A stretch of DNA of 64,000 nt, taken from NCBI GenBank assembly GCA_029838195.1, contig JALGVJ010000001.1, positions 64,001 to 128,000 on the forward strand. The letters are read 5' to 3'. Within the stretch, counting starts at the first letter, position 1. Each line of letters starts with the position of its first letter. Positions 5,790-48,199 of this stretch are shown one piece after another. This stretch comes from Promethearchaeota archaeon. Its GTDB lineage: Archaea > Asgardarchaeota > Lokiarchaeia > Sigyniarchaeales > SOKP01. Below the pieces are notes generated by a model. That model did no database searches. It was not told the origin of the DNA and saw only the letters and a program-made list of their open reading frames with translations. The translations under genes were made by a program, and so were the position numbers.

Positions 5790-6365
5790 TTATTGGGCAT
5801 TTACTATAATTTTTGCAGTAGGATCTTTTTCATATCCAAAATACTTTCCATGTTTACCATGTAAAATAATCGTGGAGTTTTCACCCATTAGAGCACCACA
5901 ATAATCTCCTATTGTACCTCTGATCTTCAGAACCTTATCCTTTGGTAATAAATATCCAATAAAATCCAGAGAATATCCGATTTTATTGTCGTCAGAAGGA
6001 CCTCTTGCTCTCATATCAACATTTGAAGATGCATTATTAATTATTCTTGAGTTAAATAGTTCTAAGTCAATACTTATCTTATCTTGATTTTGAAATAATC
6101 GCTTTAAAAGGGCGTTAAGAAATAAGCCCGCAAATACGGGAAAAAAAGGTTTATCACAATATTTGTAAAACTCATTATTTAGAAGGAATTGGACATCTGC
6201 CACCTCAAATGAATCAATTATCTGAACCATTTCAACAAATTCTTGAAACATGCGAAAAATTTTATCTAGATATTCTTCCGGTCTGTTAAGAGAGATTTCA
6301 ATTAATTCGTCCAGCAAACCATAATATTCAAATATTTCTTTAAGGGCTTCACTTAATGCACTCAT
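5790..6365 (-). CDS. Hypothetical protein with C-terminal GXGXG (GltB/FwdC-like) beta-helix repeats
   Basis: IRGTIGDYCGALMGENSTIILHGKHGKYFG. Confidence 0.6.
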   Translation of the reverse strand: MSALSEALKEIFEYYGLLDELIEISLNRPEEYLDKIFRMFQEFVEMVQIIDSFEVADVQFLLNNEFYKYCDKPFFPVFAGLFLNALLKRLFQNQDKISIDLELFNSRIINNASSNVDMRARGPSDDNKIGYSLDFIGYLLPKDKVLKIRGTIGDYCGALMGENSTIILHGKHGKYFGYEKDPTAKIIVNAQ

Positions 6366-6558
6366 CCTAATAATTGTGTAATAAATTTAATATTTAAAAT
6401 TATTTTTCAGAAATAGGAGGCCAATTTCTATTAATTTTTTGCTCTCGTTTTAATTCTTTAACATGAAGATATTTCTACTATTTAGGAATCTTGAAGATTC
6501 TAAACTTGGAAAAATTCCTTTATAACATGAATCTGGATTCATTACAAATAAACTTGAA

Positions 6559-7473
6559 ATGAAAGTAAATATAAAATTAAATATGGATGGTTTTTCTTAT
6601 TGGCTTGGCGTTTTTTTGGCAATTTTAGCCGGAATTATCATGAATTATGGAATCCTATTACAAAAACAAGTTATCGTGTCCCTCCCTAAAGAAGCAAAAT
6701 TTATGAGAACCTTGATTAGAACACCCCGTTGGATAATTGGTTTGATTTTAGGCTATATAGTCGCCGGATTATTTTATATTTTGGCCATGCTATTCATTGG
6801 ACCTGCTCTCGTTCCGGGGCTTTTAGCTTTGGGGATTGTCGTTCTTGCTATCGGGTCGGTAAAAATTATAGGAGATCGTCTTAAAAAGGAGGAAATTGTA
6901 GCAATTATTTTAATGATAATTGCTACATTTTTATTAAGTTTTTCCGGGTTATCCATAGCAATAACGGAATATAATTTTATAGAACTTAATTTTATAATCC
7001 GTTTAACCATTTTCACCTTCGTATTTTTCATTGTATCCATTATTTTAGAACTCATCCAAAGAAAAATTAGCTATCTAAAGGGTTTTTCTTTAGCACTTAT
7101 TGCAGGTTTTATGTACGCTCTCACGGATTTCTGGATGGGTATTCTAGTAGGACTCCTTCCTCGTTTATTTCAAGGACTCTTGTTGATGGAGGAAATTATT
7201 TTATTTATCATTTGTGGAGTCATTTTAATCGTTACCAATGTATTTGCCGTAGTAAAACTACAACAAGCCTTAAAACAAGGTGTAGCCAGTAATATCATGG
7301 TCATGCAACAAATTCCCATTAATTTCATTCCCTTTCTTGCTTATTTGGCCATATTTTTATTAACACCCCCATCCATTTATTCCATTTTGCTAATAATTGT
7401 GGGCTCCATTTTAATCATTATATGCTCTTATCTGTTAGGCCGTAGACAAATCGAATTAGAAAAAATTCATTAA
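6559..7473 (+). CDS. DMT-superfamily membrane protein, NIPA Mg2+-transporter-like
   Basis: About 9 TM; LAILAG..LQK, PRWIIG, GPALVPGL..GDRL pattern. Confidence 0.65.
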   Translation: MKVNIKLNMDGFSYWLGVFLAILAGIIMNYGILLQKQVIVSLPKEAKFMRTLIRTPRWIIGLILGYIVAGLFYILAMLFIGPALVPGLLALGIVVLAIGSVKIIGDRLKKEEIVAIILMIIATFLLSFSGLSIAITEYNFIELNFIIRLTIFTFVFFIVSIILELIQRKISYLKGFSLALIAGFMYALTDFWMGILVGLLPRLFQGLLLMEEIILFIICGVILIVTNVFAVVKLQQALKQGVASNIMVMQQIPINFIPFLAYLAIFLLTPPSIYSILLIIVGSILIIICSYLLGRRQIELEKIH

Positions 7474-29223: not shown

Positions 29224-30594
29224 ATGAATGAACAAGGATTTAGTAAATGGCAAAAATGGAGCTTCGGAATGGGGTCCTTCGCTCAATGGTTCGTAATGAG
29301 CGCTTTTAATACGTGGGTCTTCACGTTTTACTTTTCCGCTGTTAAATTGAATGTGAATCTCATAATGCTTGCTTATATTACCTGGACGATCTGGAATGCT
29401 ATTAATGACCCTTTACTGGGATATATCTCGGATAGGACTCGAACGCGATGGGGGAGAAGGAAACCTTTCATAATTCTAGGAACCATCCCTGTTTTAATAA
29501 TTGAGATAATCTTATGGATTCCTCCTACGGGTAACCCAATATATACTTTTATTTATTTACTCATCATGCTAATCTGCTACGATACATTTTATACCATGAT
29601 CACTTTTTTCGATGCATTATTTCCTGAATTGTATGTTTCCGTAGAGGAGCGAGCAGAAGTAAACACCATCAAGCAAATTCTAGCCACGGTTGGCTTGCTC
29701 TTTGCATATTTAATTCCGGGTATTTTCATAGGAGATCTTACTGTAAAAGAGGGTTATTTAATAAATGGACTTGTTACGTCCATTATCGTGGGCATTTCCT
29801 TATTTATAGCGATTTATTGGGGCGTGAGAGAAAAGGAGGAATTTAAATTTGACCATCAGCATGAATTCAATTTTTTCGAGGGTTTAAAATATGCTTTCAA
29901 GAATAGAGGTTTTGTACTTTACACCATCATGTTTTTTCTCTATGAATACATTCTCCTGGTATTAGGTACGACAGTTCCGCTCTATGCGACCCATGTTCTT
30001 CACGTGAGCAATACGTTTCAGATTTCCCTACTCCTTGGCGTCATGTTCGTAGTGGGTGTTTTAACCGTGCCTATTTGGAGAAAGCTGGATGTAAAAATGG
30101 GTAGTAAAAGAGCATATGGTGTTTCCCTCGTGGCATATCTCCTCACTACCGTCCCTCTCTTGGTTGTTGCAGATTTTCAATCGGCCATTATTACCGTCGT
30201 GTTCATGGGGTTCGGTTTCGGTGGAATGCTTTATTTTATTTATTTAATCATTGCGGATGTCATTGATGAGGATGAATTGCGTACGGGTGTTAGAAGAGAA
30301 GGTACGTTTTTCGGGGTAACGAATTTTTTCATGCGATTAGCCATGATATTATCCATCATAACGGTCGGCATGGTTTTTAACACCACGGGTTGGGAAGAAT
30401 ATGTTCCCAATCCCAATGTCAATGTCATTCTTGGATTAAAACTCTTGGTATTCTTGTTTCCAGCGCTTGCAATTGTTGTTACAATGATTTGTTTATATTT
30501 TTACCCTTTTCCTAAGGAAAAAGTTGAACAAATGAAAAAACAACTCGAAGAATTACATGCTAAGAAAAGAGAAAGAATCCTTTCGAATCAATAA
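29224..30594 (+). CDS. MFS transporter, GPH/MelB-like family
   Basis: NAINDPLLGYISDRTRTRWGRRKPF, IADVIDEDE..TGVRREG. Confidence 0.92.
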   Translation: MNEQGFSKWQKWSFGMGSFAQWFVMSAFNTWVFTFYFSAVKLNVNLIMLAYITWTIWNAINDPLLGYISDRTRTRWGRRKPFIILGTIPVLIIEIILWIPPTGNPIYTFIYLLIMLICYDTFYTMITFFDALFPELYVSVEERAEVNTIKQILATVGLLFAYLIPGIFIGDLTVKEGYLINGLVTSIIVGISLFIAIYWGVREKEEFKFDHQHEFNFFEGLKYAFKNRGFVLYTIMFFLYEYILLVLGTTVPLYATHVLHVSNTFQISLLLGVMFVVGVLTVPIWRKLDVKMGSKRAYGVSLVAYLLTTVPLLVVADFQSAIITVVFMGFGFGGMLYFIYLIIADVIDEDELRTGVRREGTFFGVTNFFMRLAMILSIITVGMVFNTTGWEEYVPNPNVNVILGLKLLVFLFPALAIVVTMICLYFYPFPKEKVEQMKKQLEELHAKKRERILSNQ

Positions 30595-30673
30595 ATAATT
30601 TTAATTTCTCCGTTTTTATTTATTCCCTTACATGAACCCCCGTTTTTTTCCAGAGGTTAATAAAAGAAAAAAA

Positions 30674-31954
30674 TTAAATTTTTGAAAGAGCTTGATCGAA
30701 ATCTTCAATTATATCCTCGGGATCTTCAAGTCCTACCGAAAAGCGGAAATGGGTGGGCGGAATGTTCATGGATCTCTTTTCCCAAGAGGCCAGGTCGATG
30801 CCCGTCATGAAAGGAGTAAATTGAATTAAGGATGTGCTGTCGCCCAAAGAAACGCCTACTTTAATTAATTTGAAATTTTCCATCAATTTTTTACAATCTT
30901 CTTCATTGCTTACTTCAAATCCAATCATCCCCCCGAAATGCTTCATTTGTTTTTTAGCTATTTCATGACCAGGATGCGATTCTAAGCCGGGATACATGAC
31001 TTTTGAGACCTTGGGGTGGTTCTCTAAATATCGACTTATTTCCATTGCATTCCGGGAGTGGCGTTCCATTCTCATGCCTAACGTGCGCATGCCACGGAGA
31101 ATGAGCCAAGCGTTAAAAGGACTGAGCACTTGTCCCTGAAGCTCTTGCCAAAAATATCGGATGTTCCTGATATGATTTTTTTCGCCAATTATGGCCCCGC
31201 CTAAGACGTCTCCGTGCCCATTTATGTATTTAGTCAAGCTCTCCACGACCAAATCCGCACCTAAGTCCAAGGGACGCTGTAGCGCCGGGGAGGCCCATGT
31301 ATTGTCCACGATCAATTTTCCGCCCACCTCATGAATTAAGGCAGCACATGCCTCTATATCAATGACATCAACGGTGGGATTGGCCGGTGTTTCGAAAAAG
31401 AGTAATTTGGTATTCTCGTCAATCGCTTTTTCCAATGCATTTAAATCCGTGAGGTCCACGCGCTTGGTCTGAATTCCTAATTGACAGTAAAGATTCGTAA
31501 AAAGCCTATAAGAACCCGTGTATTGATTTAAATGCGTTATCATGTTAGGAATGGCATCGGGCGTTGATTGAGGATAGTATTTTTTTATTTTTTCCGGGCG
31601 GATGCGTTCCAAACGCTCTTGCAGCACGCTGGAACATGCTAAGTGAACGGCGGCCATCCCTGATGCTACTGAAATTGTCGCCTCTCCCCCGTGGAGTACC
31701 GCTAATTTCTCATCAAGGGCATAAAGCGTGGGATTTTCCGTTCTCGAATAAAAATAGTGATTTTGAAGTAATTCTGATAAAGTCGCATAGGTATACGATT
31801 TTGTCGCATAAATGGGCGTTCTCAACCCATGAGAAGTTTCCGGATAAGGATCTTCTCCGGCTCGAATTGCTTGAGTGTCGAACCTCATGGCTGCCCAAGC
31901 CTGGCGAGTCTTTTCTCGTTCTTGAACGTCGTCTTTCTTTTCTTGTTCACTCAT
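30674..31954 (-). CDS. PLP-dependent Cys/Met metabolism enzyme, methionine gamma-lyase-like
   Basis: YSRTENPT, SGMAA, ETPANP, DNT, SLTKYINGHGD, VSLGD. Confidence 0.88.
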   Translation of the reverse strand: MSEQEKKDDVQEREKTRQAWAAMRFDTQAIRAGEDPYPETSHGLRTPIYATKSYTYATLSELLQNHYFYSRTENPTLYALDEKLAVLHGGEATISVASGMAAVHLACSSVLQERLERIRPEKIKKYYPQSTPDAIPNMITHLNQYTGSYRLFTNLYCQLGIQTKRVDLTDLNALEKAIDENTKLLFFETPANPTVDVIDIEACAALIHEVGGKLIVDNTWASPALQRPLDLGADLVVESLTKYINGHGDVLGGAIIGEKNHIRNIRYFWQELQGQVLSPFNAWLILRGMRTLGMRMERHSRNAMEISRYLENHPKVSKVMYPGLESHPGHEIAKKQMKHFGGMIGFEVSNEEDCKKLMENFKLIKVGVSLGDSTSLIQFTPFMTGIDLASWEKRSMNIPPTHFRFSVGLEDPEDIIEDFDQALSKI

Positions 31955-32056
31955 TTTTTATCACTTTTTTATATCATGATGATTAAATTTAATTTTTAAA
32001 ATAATAATGTTATATGCCGTAATTCTTTTTTTAGAATGAGCCTTGAGCATCGAATA

Positions 32057-33565
32057 TCATGTTCCGGGAAGATTAAGGGAATCTTTCGATTGATCTAACC
32101 CTTCTGCTATTTGATAATCTTCCATCGTTCGCTTGCTCACCATCTTAGTGTATTCTTTAATCTTCTTTTCAAGTTCGGGAGATAAACCGGGCCCTTTCTG
32201 GGTTTGGAGGATCTCGTTGACTTTCAAGCGAGCTCTTTCCATCATCGTGGTACCACCTTGTCTTAACCATGCCCCCCTTCTCTGCCGATCTGCCAATTGC
32301 GGCACGAATAATTCCTTTCTCGTATTTTTTGCGGTATGCCTCAAGCTTAAATAATTCTTCCCGCTTAAAGCAATTTCCTTGATCTGTTCAATGGCTAAAG
32401 CCTCTTCATCCATGCGAATTCCTTCTAACCCCCGCATGACGATGCTTATCAGCTCATCATCTATAACCAGCAATTCAAACGCTTCCGAAAGAGAACTCTC
32501 GTAGGTACCCGCGCATGTTATGTAATTGATTCCCGCTTGAGAAGAAAAAAATAGTGTCATGAGTCTCTCATGGCCATTCTGAATATCGAAGCATTTGGAT
32601 TCCGTCACGCAGCCCGGACCCCGTGAAGGAATGCCATAAAAACGGGCTAATTGTGCCATTCCTGCCGTAATTAACCCTGTTTCAACTGAACCCCACGCCA
32701 CATTTCCCGTAACAGGATCCATGGGCGCACTCATGGTAGAATAAAGAATTGGAGTACCAGAATTGATGAGTTGAGCAAGTACCACGGAGGAAAGAATTTC
32801 CATGTTGGATTGGATTAACACACCTGCTAAAGTCACGGGGGCTGTAGCTCCCGCACTTGCCGCAGGCGCAATTATGAGTGGTTGATTGTATTTAGCAAAA
32901 ATGAATAATCCGTTTAACATTATTCGAGTAAGATGAAGCGGACTTGTCGGATTGAAAAAACCTATCAAGCGTGGACGTTTTCTGAGTTCATCCTCTCCTC
33001 CTACAATCATGGATGTTAAATTCATCATGTCTTGACTGGCAACTCGTCCATAACATCCAAGACCGTAAGGCTTATGCGAATGTTTAGCCCATACTCTAAT
33101 GGCGTGGCAATGTAATTGCAAATAGGGGACATCATTCGGCCACACGTCAACATGACTCGCTATAATATTTTTTAAACTATCTACTATTCGAATTTGGTTA
33201 ATAGTATCTTCTAACACGCTCTTACGTACCCCTTTTTTCTTCGAAAGATCATGCATTTTAACCGGCGTGCCGACCGTGGCATGATGGATGGAATTCGTAT
33301 CAATTTTTACTTGAAAAGAACCATCGGGCCCGTATAAGGTAAAAGCATTTGGAACTTTTTTTAACTGCTCTTCCACCAAAGTTCGGGGAAATTTAATAAA
33401 AATGCTGTTTTCCCTTGTATCGGGAAGAGCTCCGTTATTAATTAATAGTTCACGAGCTTCTTCGGATTCTACTTTTACTCCCACTTCTTCTAATAAATTT
33501 AAAGTAGAGTCATGGATTACTCTTATTTCTTGTTCCGAAAGTACTTCCATTTTTTTCATCTTCAA
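32057..33565 (-). CDS. MttB-superfamily methyltransferase, non-pyrrolysine (paralog 1)
   Basis: SPL, APVTLAG, GIPSR, DIQNGHER with Arg at the Pyl-equivalent site; no in-frame TAG. Confidence 0.9.
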   Translation of the reverse strand: MKMKKMEVLSEQEIRVIHDSTLNLLEEVGVKVESEEARELLINNGALPDTRENSIFIKFPRTLVEEQLKKVPNAFTLYGPDGSFQVKIDTNSIHHATVGTPVKMHDLSKKKGVRKSVLEDTINQIRIVDSLKNIIASHVDVWPNDVPYLQLHCHAIRVWAKHSHKPYGLGCYGRVASQDMMNLTSMIVGGEDELRKRPRLIGFFNPTSPLHLTRIMLNGLFIFAKYNQPLIIAPAASAGATAPVTLAGVLIQSNMEILSSVVLAQLINSGTPILYSTMSAPMDPVTGNVAWGSVETGLITAGMAQLARFYGIPSRGPGCVTESKCFDIQNGHERLMTLFFSSQAGINYITCAGTYESSLSEAFELLVIDDELISIVMRGLEGIRMDEEALAIEQIKEIALSGKNYLSLRHTAKNTRKELFVPQLADRQRRGAWLRQGGTTMMERARLKVNEILQTQKGPGLSPELEKKIKEYTKMVSKRTMEDYQIAEGLDQSKDSLNLPGT

Positions 33566-33757
33566 GAATTTTTCACCAACATGTTCGTGTTAAAAAGAGT
33601 AATTGCTCATTATCCTTGATAATATTACATGCTTCTTAAATGCTAAAAATTCCGTTTTATGTTTTCCCGAATTATTTTGAAAAAGTTTTTTTGTCAATGG
33701 AATTTAAGTGATATTAAAAATTTAATTGCTTAAAAATTGATACACGAGTTAAAAAAA

Positions 33758-34408
33758 ATGAGTCTGGAAGAAGATATTAAAACTTCTATCTTAGAATTTG
33801 ATGAAGATGGATTAAAAAAAAGGATTGAAACTGCTCTCTCCACGAAAGAAGCAGATCCGCTAACCATTCTCAAGATTATCGGGAATGTTATGACTTTAGT
33901 AGGAGATAAATTTGAAAAGGAAGAATATTTCTTGCCCGAATTAATCATGAGCGCCAATATCGTGAAATCTGCTATTGATGAAATATTGGATCCCGCTCTG
34001 AGGAACACAGGACAGAAAAAAGAATCTTTGGGCAAGGTCGTTATCGGAACCGTAGAAGGCGACGTTCATTCAATAGGAAAAGACCTCATTGCTTCTTTCT
34101 TGTTTTCCAATGGATTCGAAGTGTACAATCTGGGAGAAGAAGTGCCCGCTGAAAAATTTATTAATAAAGCAGAGGAAGTAAATGCCCATATCATTGGTCT
34201 AAGCTCCTTGCTCACGATGTCCATGGATTTCCAAAGGCAGGTCATCCAAGAATTAAAAAAGCGAGAGCTCCGAGATAAATATAAAGTAATTGTCGGTGGC
34301 AGTCCTACTTCGGAAGAATGGGCGGAGCAAATTGGCGCCGATGGATGGGCGGATGATGCTCTTGAGACCGTGGCCCTTGTTAAAAAATTATTAAATATAA
34401 ATGAATAA
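33758..34408 (+). CDS. Cognate corrinoid (B12-binding) protein
   Basis: FLPELIMSA cap, EGDVHSIG (DxHxxG), SSLLT, VGG, IGADG. Confidence 0.95.
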   Translation: MSLEEDIKTSILEFDEDGLKKRIETALSTKEADPLTILKIIGNVMTLVGDKFEKEEYFLPELIMSANIVKSAIDEILDPALRNTGQKKESLGKVVIGTVEGDVHSIGKDLIASFLFSNGFEVYNLGEEVPAEKFINKAEEVNAHIIGLSSLLTMSMDFQRQVIQELKKRELRDKYKVIVGGSPTSEEWAEQIGADGWADDALETVALVKKLLNINE

Positions 34409-35960
34409 ATTACAAGAAAGAGAACATGTCATGAAATTCAAGCGAATAGATTTGTTTTCGAAAGATGAGATTGAAGAGATTCACGGTGCCAGCATGCAAC
34501 TTCTCTCAGAAGTGGGTATGAAAGTAGATTCTGAGGAAACACGTGTCCTCTTAGCTAAAAACGGGGCTATAGTAGATGAAAAATCTAATTTCGTGCGTTT
34601 TCCGGAATCTTTAATTAAAGAAAAACTAAAAACCGTTCCGAATTCCTTCACCTTATATGGTCCAAACGAATCATTTCATTTTGAAGTGAACACGACAAGT
34701 ACTCAATTCGGAACTATCGGTACTCCCGTAAAAATATATGACCCCCAAAGCAAAAAGGGAGTACGCAAGACCGTGATGGAAGATACCATCAAGCAGATTC
34801 GCATAGTGGACAGCTTAAAACACGTCATGGCTTCTCACGTTGATGTATGGCCAAATGATATTAATTATTTAGCCCTTCACGTGCATTGCATTTATCAATG
34901 GGCGAAAAATACGAAAAAAGCTTATGGTTTAGGATGTATTGGGAAATTAGCTTCGCAAGATATGATGAACATGGTGTCTATTGTAGCGGGAGGAGAGGAA
35001 GAAATAATTAAAAAGCCCCGCCTCATAGGGTTCATGAATCCCACATCTCCTTTACATTTGCCCCAAATCATGACGAATGGCTTTTCTATTTTCACGAAAT
35101 ATAAACAGCCAACCATTATCGCTCCCGAAGCGCTTGCAGGAACCTCTTCACCCATCACCATTGCTGGTCTCTTAGCCCAAACTAATGCTGAAATCGTGGC
35201 AAGTGTAGTTTTATCTCAAATCTATAATCCGGGAGCGCCTGTTTTTTTTGGCACGGTCTCCCACGTGACGGACATGAAAACGGGGAATTCTGCCATCGGT
35301 TCCGTTGAAACAGGGTTAATTTCCGGAGGAATTGCGCAATTAGCACGTTTTTATGGCATTCCTTCACGGGGACCTGGAGCTGTTACAGATTCTAAATTAT
35401 TAGATCTCCAAAATGGCATGGAAAGAATGCAAACGTTAATGTGGGCTGCATTGACGGGCATAAATTACGTCACGTGTGCGGGAACTTTCGAAGCAACTTT
35501 AAGTGAGGCACTGGAATTATTAGTGATTGATGATGAATTGATAGGAATGATAAAACGGGCATTAGAAGGAGTAGAGGTAAATGAAGATACGTTGGCGGTA
35601 GATTTGATAAAAAAAATTGCTTTGAGTGAAAAAAAAGGGTCGAACTTTTTAGGGGAAATGCATACCATGAAATACATGAAAAAAGAGTTATACATGGCTT
35701 CTTTATTGGATAGAAATAGGAGAAACACCTGGTATAAAAAAGGTTCTAAAGACCTCATTCAGGTGGCACGAGAAAAAGTGGAACAAATTCTTCAAACATA
35801 TGAACCTCCTGAACTAGATCCTACTATAGAGGCGAAGTTAAAAGAATATATTAAAGAGGTAGAAGCAAGAACTTTTGAATATTATAAGAAAGTAGAGGGA
35901 ATCACGTCGGGCTCGGTGTCGATAAGCGGAGTCACGGAGATCAAATCAGATGATGCATGA
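34401..35960 (+). CDS. MttB-superfamily methyltransferase, non-pyrrolysine (paralog 2)
   Basis: Shares ASHVDVWPND, NPTSPLHL, GIPSRGPG with paralog 1; DLQNGMER. Confidence 0.9.
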   Translation: MNKLQEREHVMKFKRIDLFSKDEIEEIHGASMQLLSEVGMKVDSEETRVLLAKNGAIVDEKSNFVRFPESLIKEKLKTVPNSFTLYGPNESFHFEVNTTSTQFGTIGTPVKIYDPQSKKGVRKTVMEDTIKQIRIVDSLKHVMASHVDVWPNDINYLALHVHCIYQWAKNTKKAYGLGCIGKLASQDMMNMVSIVAGGEEEIIKKPRLIGFMNPTSPLHLPQIMTNGFSIFTKYKQPTIIAPEALAGTSSPITIAGLLAQTNAEIVASVVLSQIYNPGAPVFFGTVSHVTDMKTGNSAIGSVETGLISGGIAQLARFYGIPSRGPGAVTDSKLLDLQNGMERMQTLMWAALTGINYVTCAGTFEATLSEALELLVIDDELIGMIKRALEGVEVNEDTLAVDLIKKIALSEKKGSNFLGEMHTMKYMKKELYMASLLDRNRRNTWYKKGSKDLIQVAREKVEQILQTYEPPELDPTIEAKLKEYIKEVEARTFEYYKKVEGITSGSVSISGVTEIKSDDA

Positions 35961-37613: not shown

Positions 37614-37893
37614 TTTATTTTTTAAAAATTTTTTATACCTCCTTTAAAATTCAATATTTTTGGAAGCGTTTCTTTTCACTGTAGTTGAAATTTTCGGGCT
37701 TGCAAGCATTCAGTTCGGAAGAAGAGAAATTATTTAGAAATAATTTTTCTTTAGAAATGCTACCAAGTAGAAGTTCATCTTAATCTTGTTAATGAATGGA
37801 AAATTTTATTAATTATTTTAGCAAAATTTACATGTTACGCTTTAATATTTTTTAATTCTATTATTTTGGTAAAATTTGGAGTATTATTTCCTT

Positions 37894-39060
37894 ATGAATT
37901 CTAAAATTAAATCGATTAAATTAACACCCGTCCATGTTCCGTTTAAACCTGCTGTAAAGAAAGCCATGGCAGAGAGCGAAGGTGGATTAGGCATGGCAAT
38001 TGGCGCTGAAGAGGCATGGTTGGGGGGAGATTTCGTTATATGTCAAATTTTTGATAACCAAGGAAACATGGGAGTGGGAGAAGTATTTTTATGGCTTCCG
38101 GAGACGGGAATATCCCCAGAACAACTCATCAGTACTATTAAATCAGGACTTTACAAGTATCTTATTGGAGAAAATCCATTTAACATTAGGAAGATAAATT
38201 ATCGCATGGACATTAATCTTGCTCGTAATGACGTGGCGAAGGGCTTGTTAGACATGGCATGTTACGATTTAATGGGACAAGTAGCAAATCTTTCTGCATG
38301 TGAGTTAATGGGAGGAAGATGTGCAGAAACGATTCCTTTGGCAGCTTTAATTCCCTTAGGTTCTCCCATGTTGATGAAAGGATTAGTTAGAAGCTACTAT
38401 AAAAAAGGATATCGCACGTTCAGGTTAAAATTGGGAAAGGGGATTCAAGATGATGTTGAGATCGTGAGTATGATTAGAAAAACTTTTGCTCATGAAATAC
38501 GGTTGCGCGTGGATTATAATCAAGCCTACACACCGGCACAAGCCATTCAAGCTATAAATGCAATTGAACCTTTTCAGATTGATTATGTCGAGCAACCCGT
38601 GAGGATTGATGATTACATTGGAATGGCTCGAGTTCAAAGAAATGTTAAAATCCCTTTATTATCTCATGAAGGCTGTTTTTCCCTTCAAGATTTCATAACG
38701 TTAGTAGAAATGGGTGCGGTAAAAGTTTTAGGTATTAATTCAGAACGGCCAGGAGGGGTTTCGAAAGCATTAGATGCGTTGATTTATGCCCGGATTAGGG
38801 GATTAGGCATCGTGCTTCATAACCAACCCTTAGGAATTTCTTCGGCCTTCCAACTACACCTTCATGCTTCTCATTATTATTCAATTGAACATGCAACCGA
38901 ATTATTCGGCCAAGAAATGCTGGAAGATGATTTAATTGTTAAACCGCTTGAAATATTTAATGGTAAAGCAAAAATACCTGAGGGACAAGGATGGGGTGTT
39001 AAGTTGGATGAGTCTGCGTTAGAGAAATATGCAGTCGCTCCTCCTGAATATTTAGAATAA
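37894..39060 (+). CDS. Enolase superfamily (MR/MLE-type) enzyme with atypical active site
   Basis: LDMACYDL.G, RLK, DYNQ, EQP, PEGQGWGV. Confidence 0.88.
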   Translation: MNSKIKSIKLTPVHVPFKPAVKKAMAESEGGLGMAIGAEEAWLGGDFVICQIFDNQGNMGVGEVFLWLPETGISPEQLISTIKSGLYKYLIGENPFNIRKINYRMDINLARNDVAKGLLDMACYDLMGQVANLSACELMGGRCAETIPLAALIPLGSPMLMKGLVRSYYKKGYRTFRLKLGKGIQDDVEIVSMIRKTFAHEIRLRVDYNQAYTPAQAIQAINAIEPFQIDYVEQPVRIDDYIGMARVQRNVKIPLLSHEGCFSLQDFITLVEMGAVKVLGINSERPGGVSKALDALIYARIRGLGIVLHNQPLGISSAFQLHLHASHYYSIEHATELFGQEMLEDDLIVKPLEIFNGKAKIPEGQGWGVKLDESALEKYAVAPPEYLE

Positions 39061-46048: not shown

Positions 46049-47092
46049 TCAATATTTACCGATTTTTTCAGTTAAGGTCTTAGCCATCCCCAAATTCCTA
46101 CAAGCCATTTCAATTGGCTCCCAAGGCCACTCACATCCCGCCGCATACATGTATTGTCCGCCTGGCTTGCCGGCTGCTATAGTTTTCGTGATTTCATCCA
46201 TCACTTCATTAATCGTATAAGTTAATGAACCTAAGATTTGTGTATTTGTATTTCCACGAATACAATGGTCTTTACCAATTTTCTCTTTAGCCATTTTTAA
46301 GTCCACTTGATAATCTAAATCAATAATATCAGCTCCCGTGCCTGAAATTAAATTTAACATGTCTCGTCCTTCCTTGTCTATTTTTGAGTTGTCTCCACAA
46401 ACATGATATAGAACAGGAACTTTTCTTTTAATGTAGGAAAATAAGTCTTGAGTGGCCTTTAAACAGCAGCGCTCGTATCTCATGGGACCTATTTGAGAGA
46501 TAGCAGAATCGCCGGCGCCGATAATATCTGCTCCCGCTTCTATTTGCATGCTCGCAAACTCTTTTTGGACGGGTAATATCCTTTCAATTAATTTTGCAAT
46601 TCTTTTATCCCAATCCGGATGTCTACACAACAATAATACATCAATTAAACCAAATAAACAGCAAATTTCAGCAAAAGGAGCTTCAATCCATCCAACGATA
46701 CATTGTTGTCCCCCTACTTTTTCGTGTAAAATCTCCACTGCTTTTACCCTATCATTCACTCTCTCGCTTTCAAGAAGATCTGGCGTTTCAATTGAGTCAA
46801 ACTCCTCAATTTTTAAATGCGTTTTCGCAATGGGAGTATTTCCTTCCCAATTTATTTCCACACCCCAAGCACTCGCTTCTCTATACGCATCCGTTGATAC
46901 GTTCACGTGGTCAATGCCAAACATTTCTGAACATTTAATTTGAGCGTTTGCGAGAATTTCGGCATTTTGACAATATTCTTGATTATAATTTACCCCGGCT
47001 AAAGAAGCTGCAAAGTGCATGATGAATGGATTGAATGGTATTTTTTCGGGAATGCCTTTAATTGCTGTTAATGTGAGTTCTAACGAATTCAT
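46049..47092 (-). CDS. URO-D/MtaA-MtbA family methylcobamide methyltransferase (MT2-like)
   Basis: EASAWG, QIEAGAD, HVCG..GCE Zn ligands (HxC..C). Confidence 0.85.
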   Translation of the reverse strand: MNSLELTLTAIKGIPEKIPFNPFIMHFAASLAGVNYNQEYCQNAEILANAQIKCSEMFGIDHVNVSTDAYREASAWGVEINWEGNTPIAKTHLKIEEFDSIETPDLLESERVNDRVKAVEILHEKVGGQQCIVGWIEAPFAEICCLFGLIDVLLLCRHPDWDKRIAKLIERILPVQKEFASMQIEAGADIIGAGDSAISQIGPMRYERCCLKATQDLFSYIKRKVPVLYHVCGDNSKIDKEGRDMLNLISGTGADIIDLDYQVDLKMAKEKIGKDHCIRGNTNTQILGSLTYTINEVMDEITKTIAAGKPGGQYMYAAGCEWPWEPIEMACRNLGMAKTLTEKIGKY

Positions 47093-47170
47093 TGTTAATT
47101 TTTTTTTTTTAGATTCTCTTTTTCTTTATCTAAAATAATGATTAATTTTTAAGGCTCAATGGGATATTTT

Positions 47171-48199
47171 TTATTCTTTTAAAATAAAATGGAAATCACA
47201 TTCAGAATCTCCTAAACCAATAAAAGTGCTGCGTTTCAATGAGATTTTAGGATTAAACTCCTCTATAGCGGGGATAAAAAACGGAATGCACATGTCTTTA
47301 CATATGAATGCCATTTTATCCCGACGTTCTGGGTTTCTTTCCATGGCTTCGATGTAAGGGCAAGATTTTAAAACCATTAAAGCTTCATTTTTTTCATTTT
47401 TAATTATTTCGTAGTCATACCCTTCAGCCTCAAAACAAAAGAACAGAATATTTAAAAGATCTTGGAGAGTCCTATCTTGGAGTGTTAAATATTTAATCAA
47501 TCGTCTAAAATTTATTTTATAGAGAAGCTGCCACACAATTATGTCTAATTTTAAAGCTCTCTCAAAACCTAATTCGTTTTCCGTCTCAATCATCCACAAT
47601 CCGTCCAAAGTGGTGAAATTTCGCTCAAAATAAAATAGCTTATCTTCCACGGTTAGGTCTTCTTTTCTCAAGAAATTCGCTTTCGAAAGAGCTTCGGTTT
47701 GTGAGCAGGGAAATCTAAACCTACAATTAGCATCGACCTTCTCCAAAAAAATCTCTCGCTCTACTTTAATGCCGTCGTTGAATTCACGGATTACTTGTTC
47801 ATAAAATGGGAGGCACATGTCCTTACAGATTAACGGGATTTTATTTTGACGTTCTGGATTTCTTTCCATTGCAGCTTTATAAGGACATGTTAAAATATCG
47901 ACAATAATTTCTTTTCTTTGATCAAATTTAATTTCATAATCCCATCCTTCCACGCTCCAACGGAAGGTAAGAATCTTGAGTAAATCGGAAAGCGTGTTAG
48001 TTTCGATCTTTAAATATCGCTTTAACCGCCGAATAATAGCTTTCATTAATTTAATCCATACTATAAGGTCAATTTTTAATGCAGTTTCCCAATCTGACTC
48101 TTTCTCCGTTTCAATCATCCATAAACCGTCGAGCGTGAAAAAACTTCTGCTTAAATAAAATAGTTTATCCTCTTTTGTAATGTTCTTAAAATCGCTCAT
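47171..48199 (-). CDS. Tandem duplicated DUF6125/V4R-like domain protein
   Basis: Two copies of DKLFY..TLDGLWMIETE..CPY..AMERNPER..ICKDMC..C.F. Confidence 0.75.
   Translation of the reverse strand: MSDFKNITKEDKLFYLSRSFFTLDGLWMIETEKESDWETALKIDLIVWIKLMKAIIRRLKRYLKIETNTLSDLLKILTFRWSVEGWDYEIKFDQRKEIIVDILTCPYKAAMERNPERQNKIPLICKDMCLPFYEQVIREFNDGIKVEREIFLEKVDANCRFRFPCSQTEALSKANFLRKEDLTVEDKLFYFERNFTTLDGLWMIETENELGFERALKLDIIVWQLLYKINFRRLIKYLTLQDRTLQDLLNILFFCFEAEGYDYEIIKNEKNEALMVLKSCPYIEAMERNPERRDKMAFICKDMCIPFFIPAIEEFNPKISLKRSTFIGLGDSECDFHFILKE

Follow-up and report, generated by a model that had tools for sequence, protein, structure and literature searches.

Introduction

Non-pyrrolysine members of the MttB methyltransferase superfamily are widespread, and the substrates known for a handful of them are all quaternary amines. 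The closest described system is MtgB/MtgC of Desulfitobacterium hafniense (2QNE, 9YCE), in which a non-pyrrolysine TIM-barrel enzyme of this superfamily works with a DxHxxG corrinoid protein, and the MT2 methyltransferase and the activase are supplied in trans or from nearby (PMC13080624). MtgB holds glycine betaine through cation-pi contacts with Y97 and F356, and R312 and H348 bind the carboxylate (PMC13080624); every member characterised so far has this R312, and each of them uses an acidic quaternary amine as its substrate (PMC13080624; 2026). Asgard archaeal MttB homologues have been treated as quaternary-amine methyltransferases of unknown substrate (PMC11291895). Here we describe a gene cassette in a 64,000-nucleotide stretch of a Promethearchaeota archaeon genome (GCA_029838195.1, contig JALGVJ010000001.1, positions 64,001 to 128,000; hereafter the window), in which two MttB paralogues lie together with a corrinoid protein, a pyridoxal phosphate (PLP) enzyme resembling methionine gamma-lyase (MGL) and a secondary carrier. 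The linkage is conserved in every Asgard locus examined, and the residue patterns of the enzymes make it reasonably probable that the cassette serves the catabolism of a methylated, carboxylate-bearing onium compound with a free alpha-amino group.

Results

The cassette is laid out in the window as follows.

29224-30594, + strand: MFS_2 (GPH-family) secondary carrier, presumed substrate importer (PF13347, 226 bits)
30674-31954, - strand: divergent, methionine-gamma-lyase-like PLP enzyme of the trans-sulfuration family, with a 21-residue basic insertion at about residues 113-133 (PF01053, Cys_Met_Meta_PP, 412 bits)
32057-33565, - strand: A-type non-pyrrolysine MttB paralogue, sharing an operon with the lyase gene and an optional part of the cassette (PF06253, 322 bits)
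33566-33757, no strand: AT-rich divergent intergenic region common to both transcription units (read from the sequence)
33737-34408, + strand: corrinoid (cobalamin-binding) protein, likely start ATG at 33758 (PF02310 and PF02607, B12-binding and B12-binding_2)
34401-35960, + strand: B-type non-pyrrolysine MttB, core methyltransferase of the cassette, its translation coupled to that of the corrinoid protein (PF06253, 359 bits)

This arrangement agrees with the first-pass annotation of the window. Two related MttB paralogues (56% identity) are divergently transcribed from one intergenic region of about 190 nt; the B-type gene is coupled to the corrinoid gene through an 8-nt overlap; the A-type gene is followed after 102 nt by the gamma-lyase-like gene, with its variant YTGS motif and an insertion after SGMAA; and the carrier gene adjoins, convergent with the lyase gene. 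The nearest homologues of the window's proteins carry the labels Promethearchaeota or Lokiarchaeota.

Of 400 phylum genomes, 75 have a lyase orthologue; 71 of these are among the 134 other genomes of the source family, and the full-length orthologues are 61-79% identical. Their surroundings were compared in 30 short loci (1.5-kb flanks), 15 loci of 20 kb, nine Asgard loci of the genome collection and two metagenome loci, which were the only further Asgard loci to come from a metagenome scan with generic peptide patterns. In each of the 30 short loci, the lyase gene has an MttB or corrinoid gene as its neighbour, with the carrier on its other side wherever the flank is long enough, and the same lyase adjacency is seen in the nine genome-collection loci, in both metagenome loci and in a genome of another family (G073). 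An orthologue of the carrier (57-75% identity) flanks the lyase in nearly all loci with sufficient flank. Carrier, lyase, corrinoid protein and MttB are present together in 15 of 15 loci of 20 kb, four of which have wholly unrelated surroundings, and lyase adjacency persists through changes of gene order, in which the A type precedes the lyase, follows it or is missing. B-type MttB orthologues (at least 60% identity) track the lyase almost 1:1 across the 135 genomes of the family, with exceptions at contig ends. The lyase is the sole true PF01053 protein of the source genome (4.5 Mb, about 32% G+C), and 52 of the 135 genomes of the family lack PF01053 enzymes altogether. About 150 loci (1.9 Mb) surrounding homologues of the lyase in bacteria contain neither MttB nor corrinoid genes. 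The first-pass annotation had let its proposal of an undescribed demethylation-plus-lyase cluster stand or fall with the conservation of lyase adjacency; that adjacency holds in every Asgard locus examined, and the conserved linkage supports the proposal.

The core of the cassette consists of the carrier, the lyase, the corrinoid protein and the B-type MttB. The A type is optional: it is found in some cassettes only, always adjoining the lyase where present. Many cassettes hold the B type alone, and in five of five such genomes checked the A type is absent genome-wide, which makes an obligate A/B heteromer, the strict form of an earlier suggestion, unlikely. Flanking genes for VTT, RDD, DNA methylase, Ras-like GTPase, Ogg and P-type ATPase proteins are also common to many loci; they recur through the synteny of related genomes, have unrelated functions and were rejected as cassette parts.

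Two further observations concern PF01053 genes of these genomes. One orthologue of the cassette lyase (G241:C65:50052-51311) has an in-frame TAG, for which a pseudogene, a sequencing error and recoding are all possible. Relatives without the cassette carry another PF01053 homologue, about 555 residues long, which is extended at its N terminus and only 28-32% identical to the cassette lyase (G165:C9:47436-48452, G206:C19:170541-171533 and G227:C1:156722-157717, among others), and in these cassette-free relatives no linkage of that gene to MttB was found.

Both MttB paralogues belong to the superfamily (322 bits for A and 359 for B, against a PF06253 cut-off of 25), and both fall short of the model for the pyrrolysine-dependent trimethylamine methyltransferase (TIGR02369; 378 and 421 bits against a cut-off of 525). 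They share superfamily and fold with the pyrrolysine-dependent MttB of Methanosarcina barkeri (7XCL), to which the B type scores 250 bits, compared with 272 bits to MtgB (2QNE/9YCE). Unlike 7XCL, they have no amber codon, and neither gene contains an in-frame stop. In the HMMER alignment, Val328 of the B type (GAVTDSK) aligns with the pyrrolysine of 7XCL (X in GSXSDAK), and the A type also has Val there (GCVTESK). The Arg that had earlier been placed at the pyrrolysine site of both enzymes lies five residues upstream (PSRGPG, R323), where it matches R312 of MtgB and stands in place of a Tyr of the pyrrolysine-dependent MttB. This carboxylate-binding Arg, kept in both Asgard enzymes as in MtgB, is not shared by the whole superfamily: a fast and uncertain alignment shows it in about 45 of 140 representatives.

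The other contacts of MtgB, whose four positions fit a constant offset of two between the numbering of the paper and the chain numbering of the alignment, are replaced: Y97 by Ile106 in B and Val98 in A, F356 by Thr366 in B and Ser358 in A, and the H348 region by a Thr-Cys pair. A comparison of ten A-type with 13 B-type orthologues gives 106 positions that vary in neither type and only nine fixed A/B differences. Two of these nine sit at the contact positions Y97 and F356 (the chance of two falling among the four known contact positions is about 0.002), and a further one is Glu243 in B and Ala in A. Because two fixed differences fall on contact positions, the sequences suggest that A and B most likely differ slightly in the substrate or methylation state that they bind, and the paralogues appear unlikely to be interchangeable. 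The cassette MttBs are only distantly similar to MtgB and carry a clade-specific ITCAGT motif, and their clade is isolated: representatives with at least 42% identity form five clusters, one named Promethearchaeota and one with a Bathyarchaeota-labelled member, and the rest of the superfamily is at 38% or below.

The lyase is a PF01053 enzyme with the full catalytic set, in which K242, D217, Y145, R404, Y69/R71 and S98-G99 are invariant. It retains the equivalents of the PLP Lys, Tyr113, Asp185, Arg375 and Tyr58/Arg60 of the MGLs of Citrobacter freundii (2RFV) and Pseudomonas putida (1GC0). MGLs are its best matches in the Protein Data Bank (39% identity), and its AlphaFold2 model (pLDDT 89) matches the fold of 2RFV with a TM-score of 0.86-0.93. 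No NCBIfam model reaches its cut-off for the protein, the MGL model TIGR01328 giving 369 bits against 550. Mapped by motif, it has Val at the position of Glu339 of cystathionine gamma-lyase and Phe at that of Glu59, both of which are MGL-like; it also keeps the Arg of YxGxxR, as in cystathionine enzymes.

Unlike the two MGLs, the enzyme has YTGS for YGCT, FTPFMTG for HPASMTH and VVES for VVHS, together with the basic insertion and an extra N-terminal helix. The 21 residues inserted after SGMAA and the QYTGS motif, which reads LYGG(T/S) in 71 homologues, are found in all Asgard orthologues and only there; R114, R117, P128, Q129 and P132 of the insertion are invariant across 24 orthologues. Further changes in the clade affect positions with at least 85% conservation among the 71 other homologues (H31R, E81D, E88H, G114R, L144Q, G146T, which turns YGG into YTG, A207I and H238E, which turns VVHS into VVES), and HPAxMTH has become (F/Y)TxxMTG. 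As read from these alignments, the entrance motifs are remodelled and the catalytic residues intact. In a quick maximum-likelihood tree the Asgard lyases are monophyletic and sister to a Tissierellia pair (approximate likelihood ratio test 91, with a long-branch caveat); the scanned member of that pair scores best as an MGL.

The corrinoid protein combines PF02310 and PF02607 with a DxHxxG motif (GDVHSIGKD), as expected of a cognate partner. Its nearest models are those of MtgC and MtbC, with scores below both cut-offs, and among the six corrinoid proteins of the genome it is the only one that adjoins an MttB. The MtgB/MtgC system pairs with a BCCT-type carrier; unlike that system, the cassette brings its methyltransferase together with an MFS_2 carrier and a PLP lyase. 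The carrier can be assigned to the broader MFS_2 family only, at 180 bits against the 231 of TIGR00792 (GPH cation symporters). MFS_2 carriers were also considered as markers of methyltransferase loci in general and rejected as such, the adjacency of URO-D and MFS_2 genes being not above random placement.

Functions that the cassette would draw on are encoded elsewhere in the source genome, which has one RamA gene, two MtrH genes, two pterin-binding genes and 26 URO-D genes. An MT2-like methyltransferase had been noted at 46049-47092 of the window. The gene is indeed of the URO-D family, but a tie to the cassette is not supported: it is one of the 26, and its place is kept only in a sister genome. 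The electron-handling role proposed for the adjacent HdrA/F420 module is not supported either, since HdrA/MvhD/FrhB genes adjoin the cassette only in this genus (the window and locus L003) and are absent from its other genomic contexts. Both the HdrA/FrhB module and the MT2-like gene are in genus-level synteny with the cassette only.

Other genes of the window are recorded here for their own sake. The URO-D/MtaA-like gene is paired with one for a DUF6125/ATC_hydrolase/MetOD1-domain protein (46049-48199, - strand), and the pair occupies the same relative place in the sister genome at 77% and 63% identity. A gene of the enolase superfamily (MR/MLE; 37876-39060, + strand) follows the ribosomal S13, S4 and S11 genes, a grouping also kept in the sister genome.

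The source genome holds other MttB genes as well. A third paralogue, 57% identical to the B type (L112, G000:C77:21000-35000; gene at 5842-7362, - strand), lies beside an M20 peptidase, an FAD amine oxidase, another MFS_2 carrier and a DUF711 + ACT gene. A general pairing of MttB with amino-acid enzymes, considered from this locus, was rejected because those neighbours are absent beside six orthologues in other genomes. A distant homologue (30% identity; L111, G000:C35:90000-104000) adjoins two CbiA/ParA-type P-loop proteins with ferredoxin domains, and a molybdopterin oxidoreductase near it is read through a TGA. The idea that this fifth MttB match (C35) is itself a selenocysteine-containing MttB was dropped: an internal TGA had been reported, and the real open reading frame has none.

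Discussion

We infer the direction of flow, the step order and the substrate class from the observed gene identities, linkage, co-occurrence and residue patterns. The MFS_2 carrier would import the onium compound, and the B-type MttB would take one methyl group off the onium centre and pass it to the Co(I) of the coupled corrinoid protein. The methyl-Co(III) would be discharged into the one-carbon pathway by a methyltransferase encoded elsewhere (of MtrH, pterin-binding or URO-D type), with the single RamA-type activase repairing oxidised cofactor. The MGL-derived PLP enzyme would then cleave the demethylated amino acid, yielding ammonia, a leaving group and a 2-oxo acid that would feed fermentative ATP synthesis. 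Where present, the A-type MttB would use the same corrinoid protein for a slightly different substrate or methylation state. The organism probably feeds on a methylated amino-acid-like compound.

Three points make an onium amino acid a candidate: both MttBs retain the carboxylate-binding Arg, the lyase has MGL-like ancestors, and a free alpha-amine is required by PLP. The kept R312-type Arg suggests that the MttB substrate carries a carboxylate. PLP chemistry requires a primary amine, so the methylated onium centre cannot be the alpha-nitrogen. Onium donors, unlike thioethers, can methylate folate-type carriers without energy input; methanogens need the Mtr complex for transfer from thioether-level methyl groups. 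Together, the amine rule, the kept Arg and these energetics point to an amino acid whose side chain bears the onium group; among natural compounds of this sort, S-methylmethionine is the best known. In gamma-butyrobetaine and L-carnitine, the substrates of MtyB and MtcB of Eubacterium limosum, the onium group lies three carbons from the carboxylate; S-methylmethionine has the same spacing (a point from chemistry, not sequence), so that its geometry would have a precedent in the family. Unlike the presumed cassette substrate, those of MtyB and MtcB have no alpha-amino group, and no lyase follows. In the S-methylmethionine version, an MttB-family enzyme would demethylate the compound (or its selenium analogue) to methionine, which the dedicated MGL-derived lyase would split into methanethiol, 2-oxobutyrate and NH3. 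A methylated sulfur or selenium amino acid was also what the first-pass annotation had pointed to, and S-methylmethionine stays the most coherent candidate; it remains the leading guess only, and as a specific identification we regard it as doubtful.

Several observations weigh against such a pathway. Three of the four glycine betaine contacts of MtgB are lost, so that its binding motif is not retained in the cassette MttBs, and we know of no MttB-family enzyme that acts on a sulfonium compound. No MT2 or RamA-type activase is encoded in the cassette (0 of 15 loci of 20 kb), which leaves the locus short of a complete three-component system. The carrier family says little about the substrate, because about 90 MFS_2 carriers score above the Pfam cut-off in the genome (for example C28:71385-72605 and C1:134334-135593). 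For the lyase, the MGL network is Cys116/Lys240/Asp241 in P. putida numbering; the corresponding C. freundii signature C115/K239/D240 reads G/Q/E, and the stem of the Asgard clade is long (1.05 changes per site). With that signature lost and a stem of this length, plain methionine may not be the substrate of the lyase.

The steps could also run in the opposite order, the PLP enzyme freeing a methylated onium leaving group from an imported gamma- or beta-substituted amino acid and the MttBs then demethylating it. The linkage data leave the step order unfixed, and the remodelled entrance, the new acidic residues (H238E, and Q/E for K/D) and the basic insertion would fit a charged, bulky substrate. 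We nevertheless consider this order unlikely, as the R312-type Arg implies an acid group on the MttB substrate, which a freed onium fragment usually does not have, and we know of no natural compound with a releasable methylated onium group of this kind.

Alternatively, the MttB and corrinoid pair might demethylate glycine betaine, carnitine, gamma-butyrobetaine or a similar known betaine, with a co-inherited lyase that has a separate role in methionine or homocysteine breakdown. All characterised non-pyrrolysine MttBs use known quaternary amines, and the models nearest to the corrinoid protein include those of MtgC, though below cut-off. Mere co-inheritance is hard to reconcile with a linkage that outlasts several gene-order rearrangements and unrelated contexts, with the almost 1:1 co-occurrence of lyase and B-type MttB, and with an insertion-bearing lyase clade found only beside MttB; the MtgB contact residues, moreover, are not kept. 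We judge this explanation quite improbable.

An anabolic or salvage role, in which the PLP enzyme would make homocysteine or methionine (as a sulfhydrylase or gamma-synthase) and the methyl group of an imported donor would end in methionine, draws on the lack of a clear MetE (a 31-bit match only) and of any other PF01053 enzyme in the genome and on a YxGSYRLF motif whose Arg resembles cystathionine gamma-synthases, but is very unlikely given the patchy cassette, the 52 of 135 family genomes that do without a PF01053 enzyme, nearest relatives and folds that are lyases, and the absence of a zinc-type homocysteine methyltransferase linked at the cassette.

Catabolism of a methylated amino-acid-like onium compound is therefore the reading we carry forward. 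A search of the available literature found no paper joining MttB with methionine gamma-lyase or with S-methylmethionine. An Asgard-specific MttB clade tied to a dedicated, remodelled PLP lyase narrows the substrate to an amino-acid-like onium compound, in a family whose characterised substrates are few. If the proposed function is right, the MttB family would gain a new substrate class, and Lokiarchaeia, which are the closest relatives of eukaryotes in culture, a new energy source; methylated sulfur or nitrogen osmolytes could then have a new sink in anoxic sediments, one that competes with methylotrophic methanogens. Should the S-methylmethionine version prove true, the cassette would be the first route that demethylates a sulfonium amino acid by way of a corrinoid protein, and Loki-type Asgard archaea would be unrecognised players in sediment organosulfur and methyl cycling.

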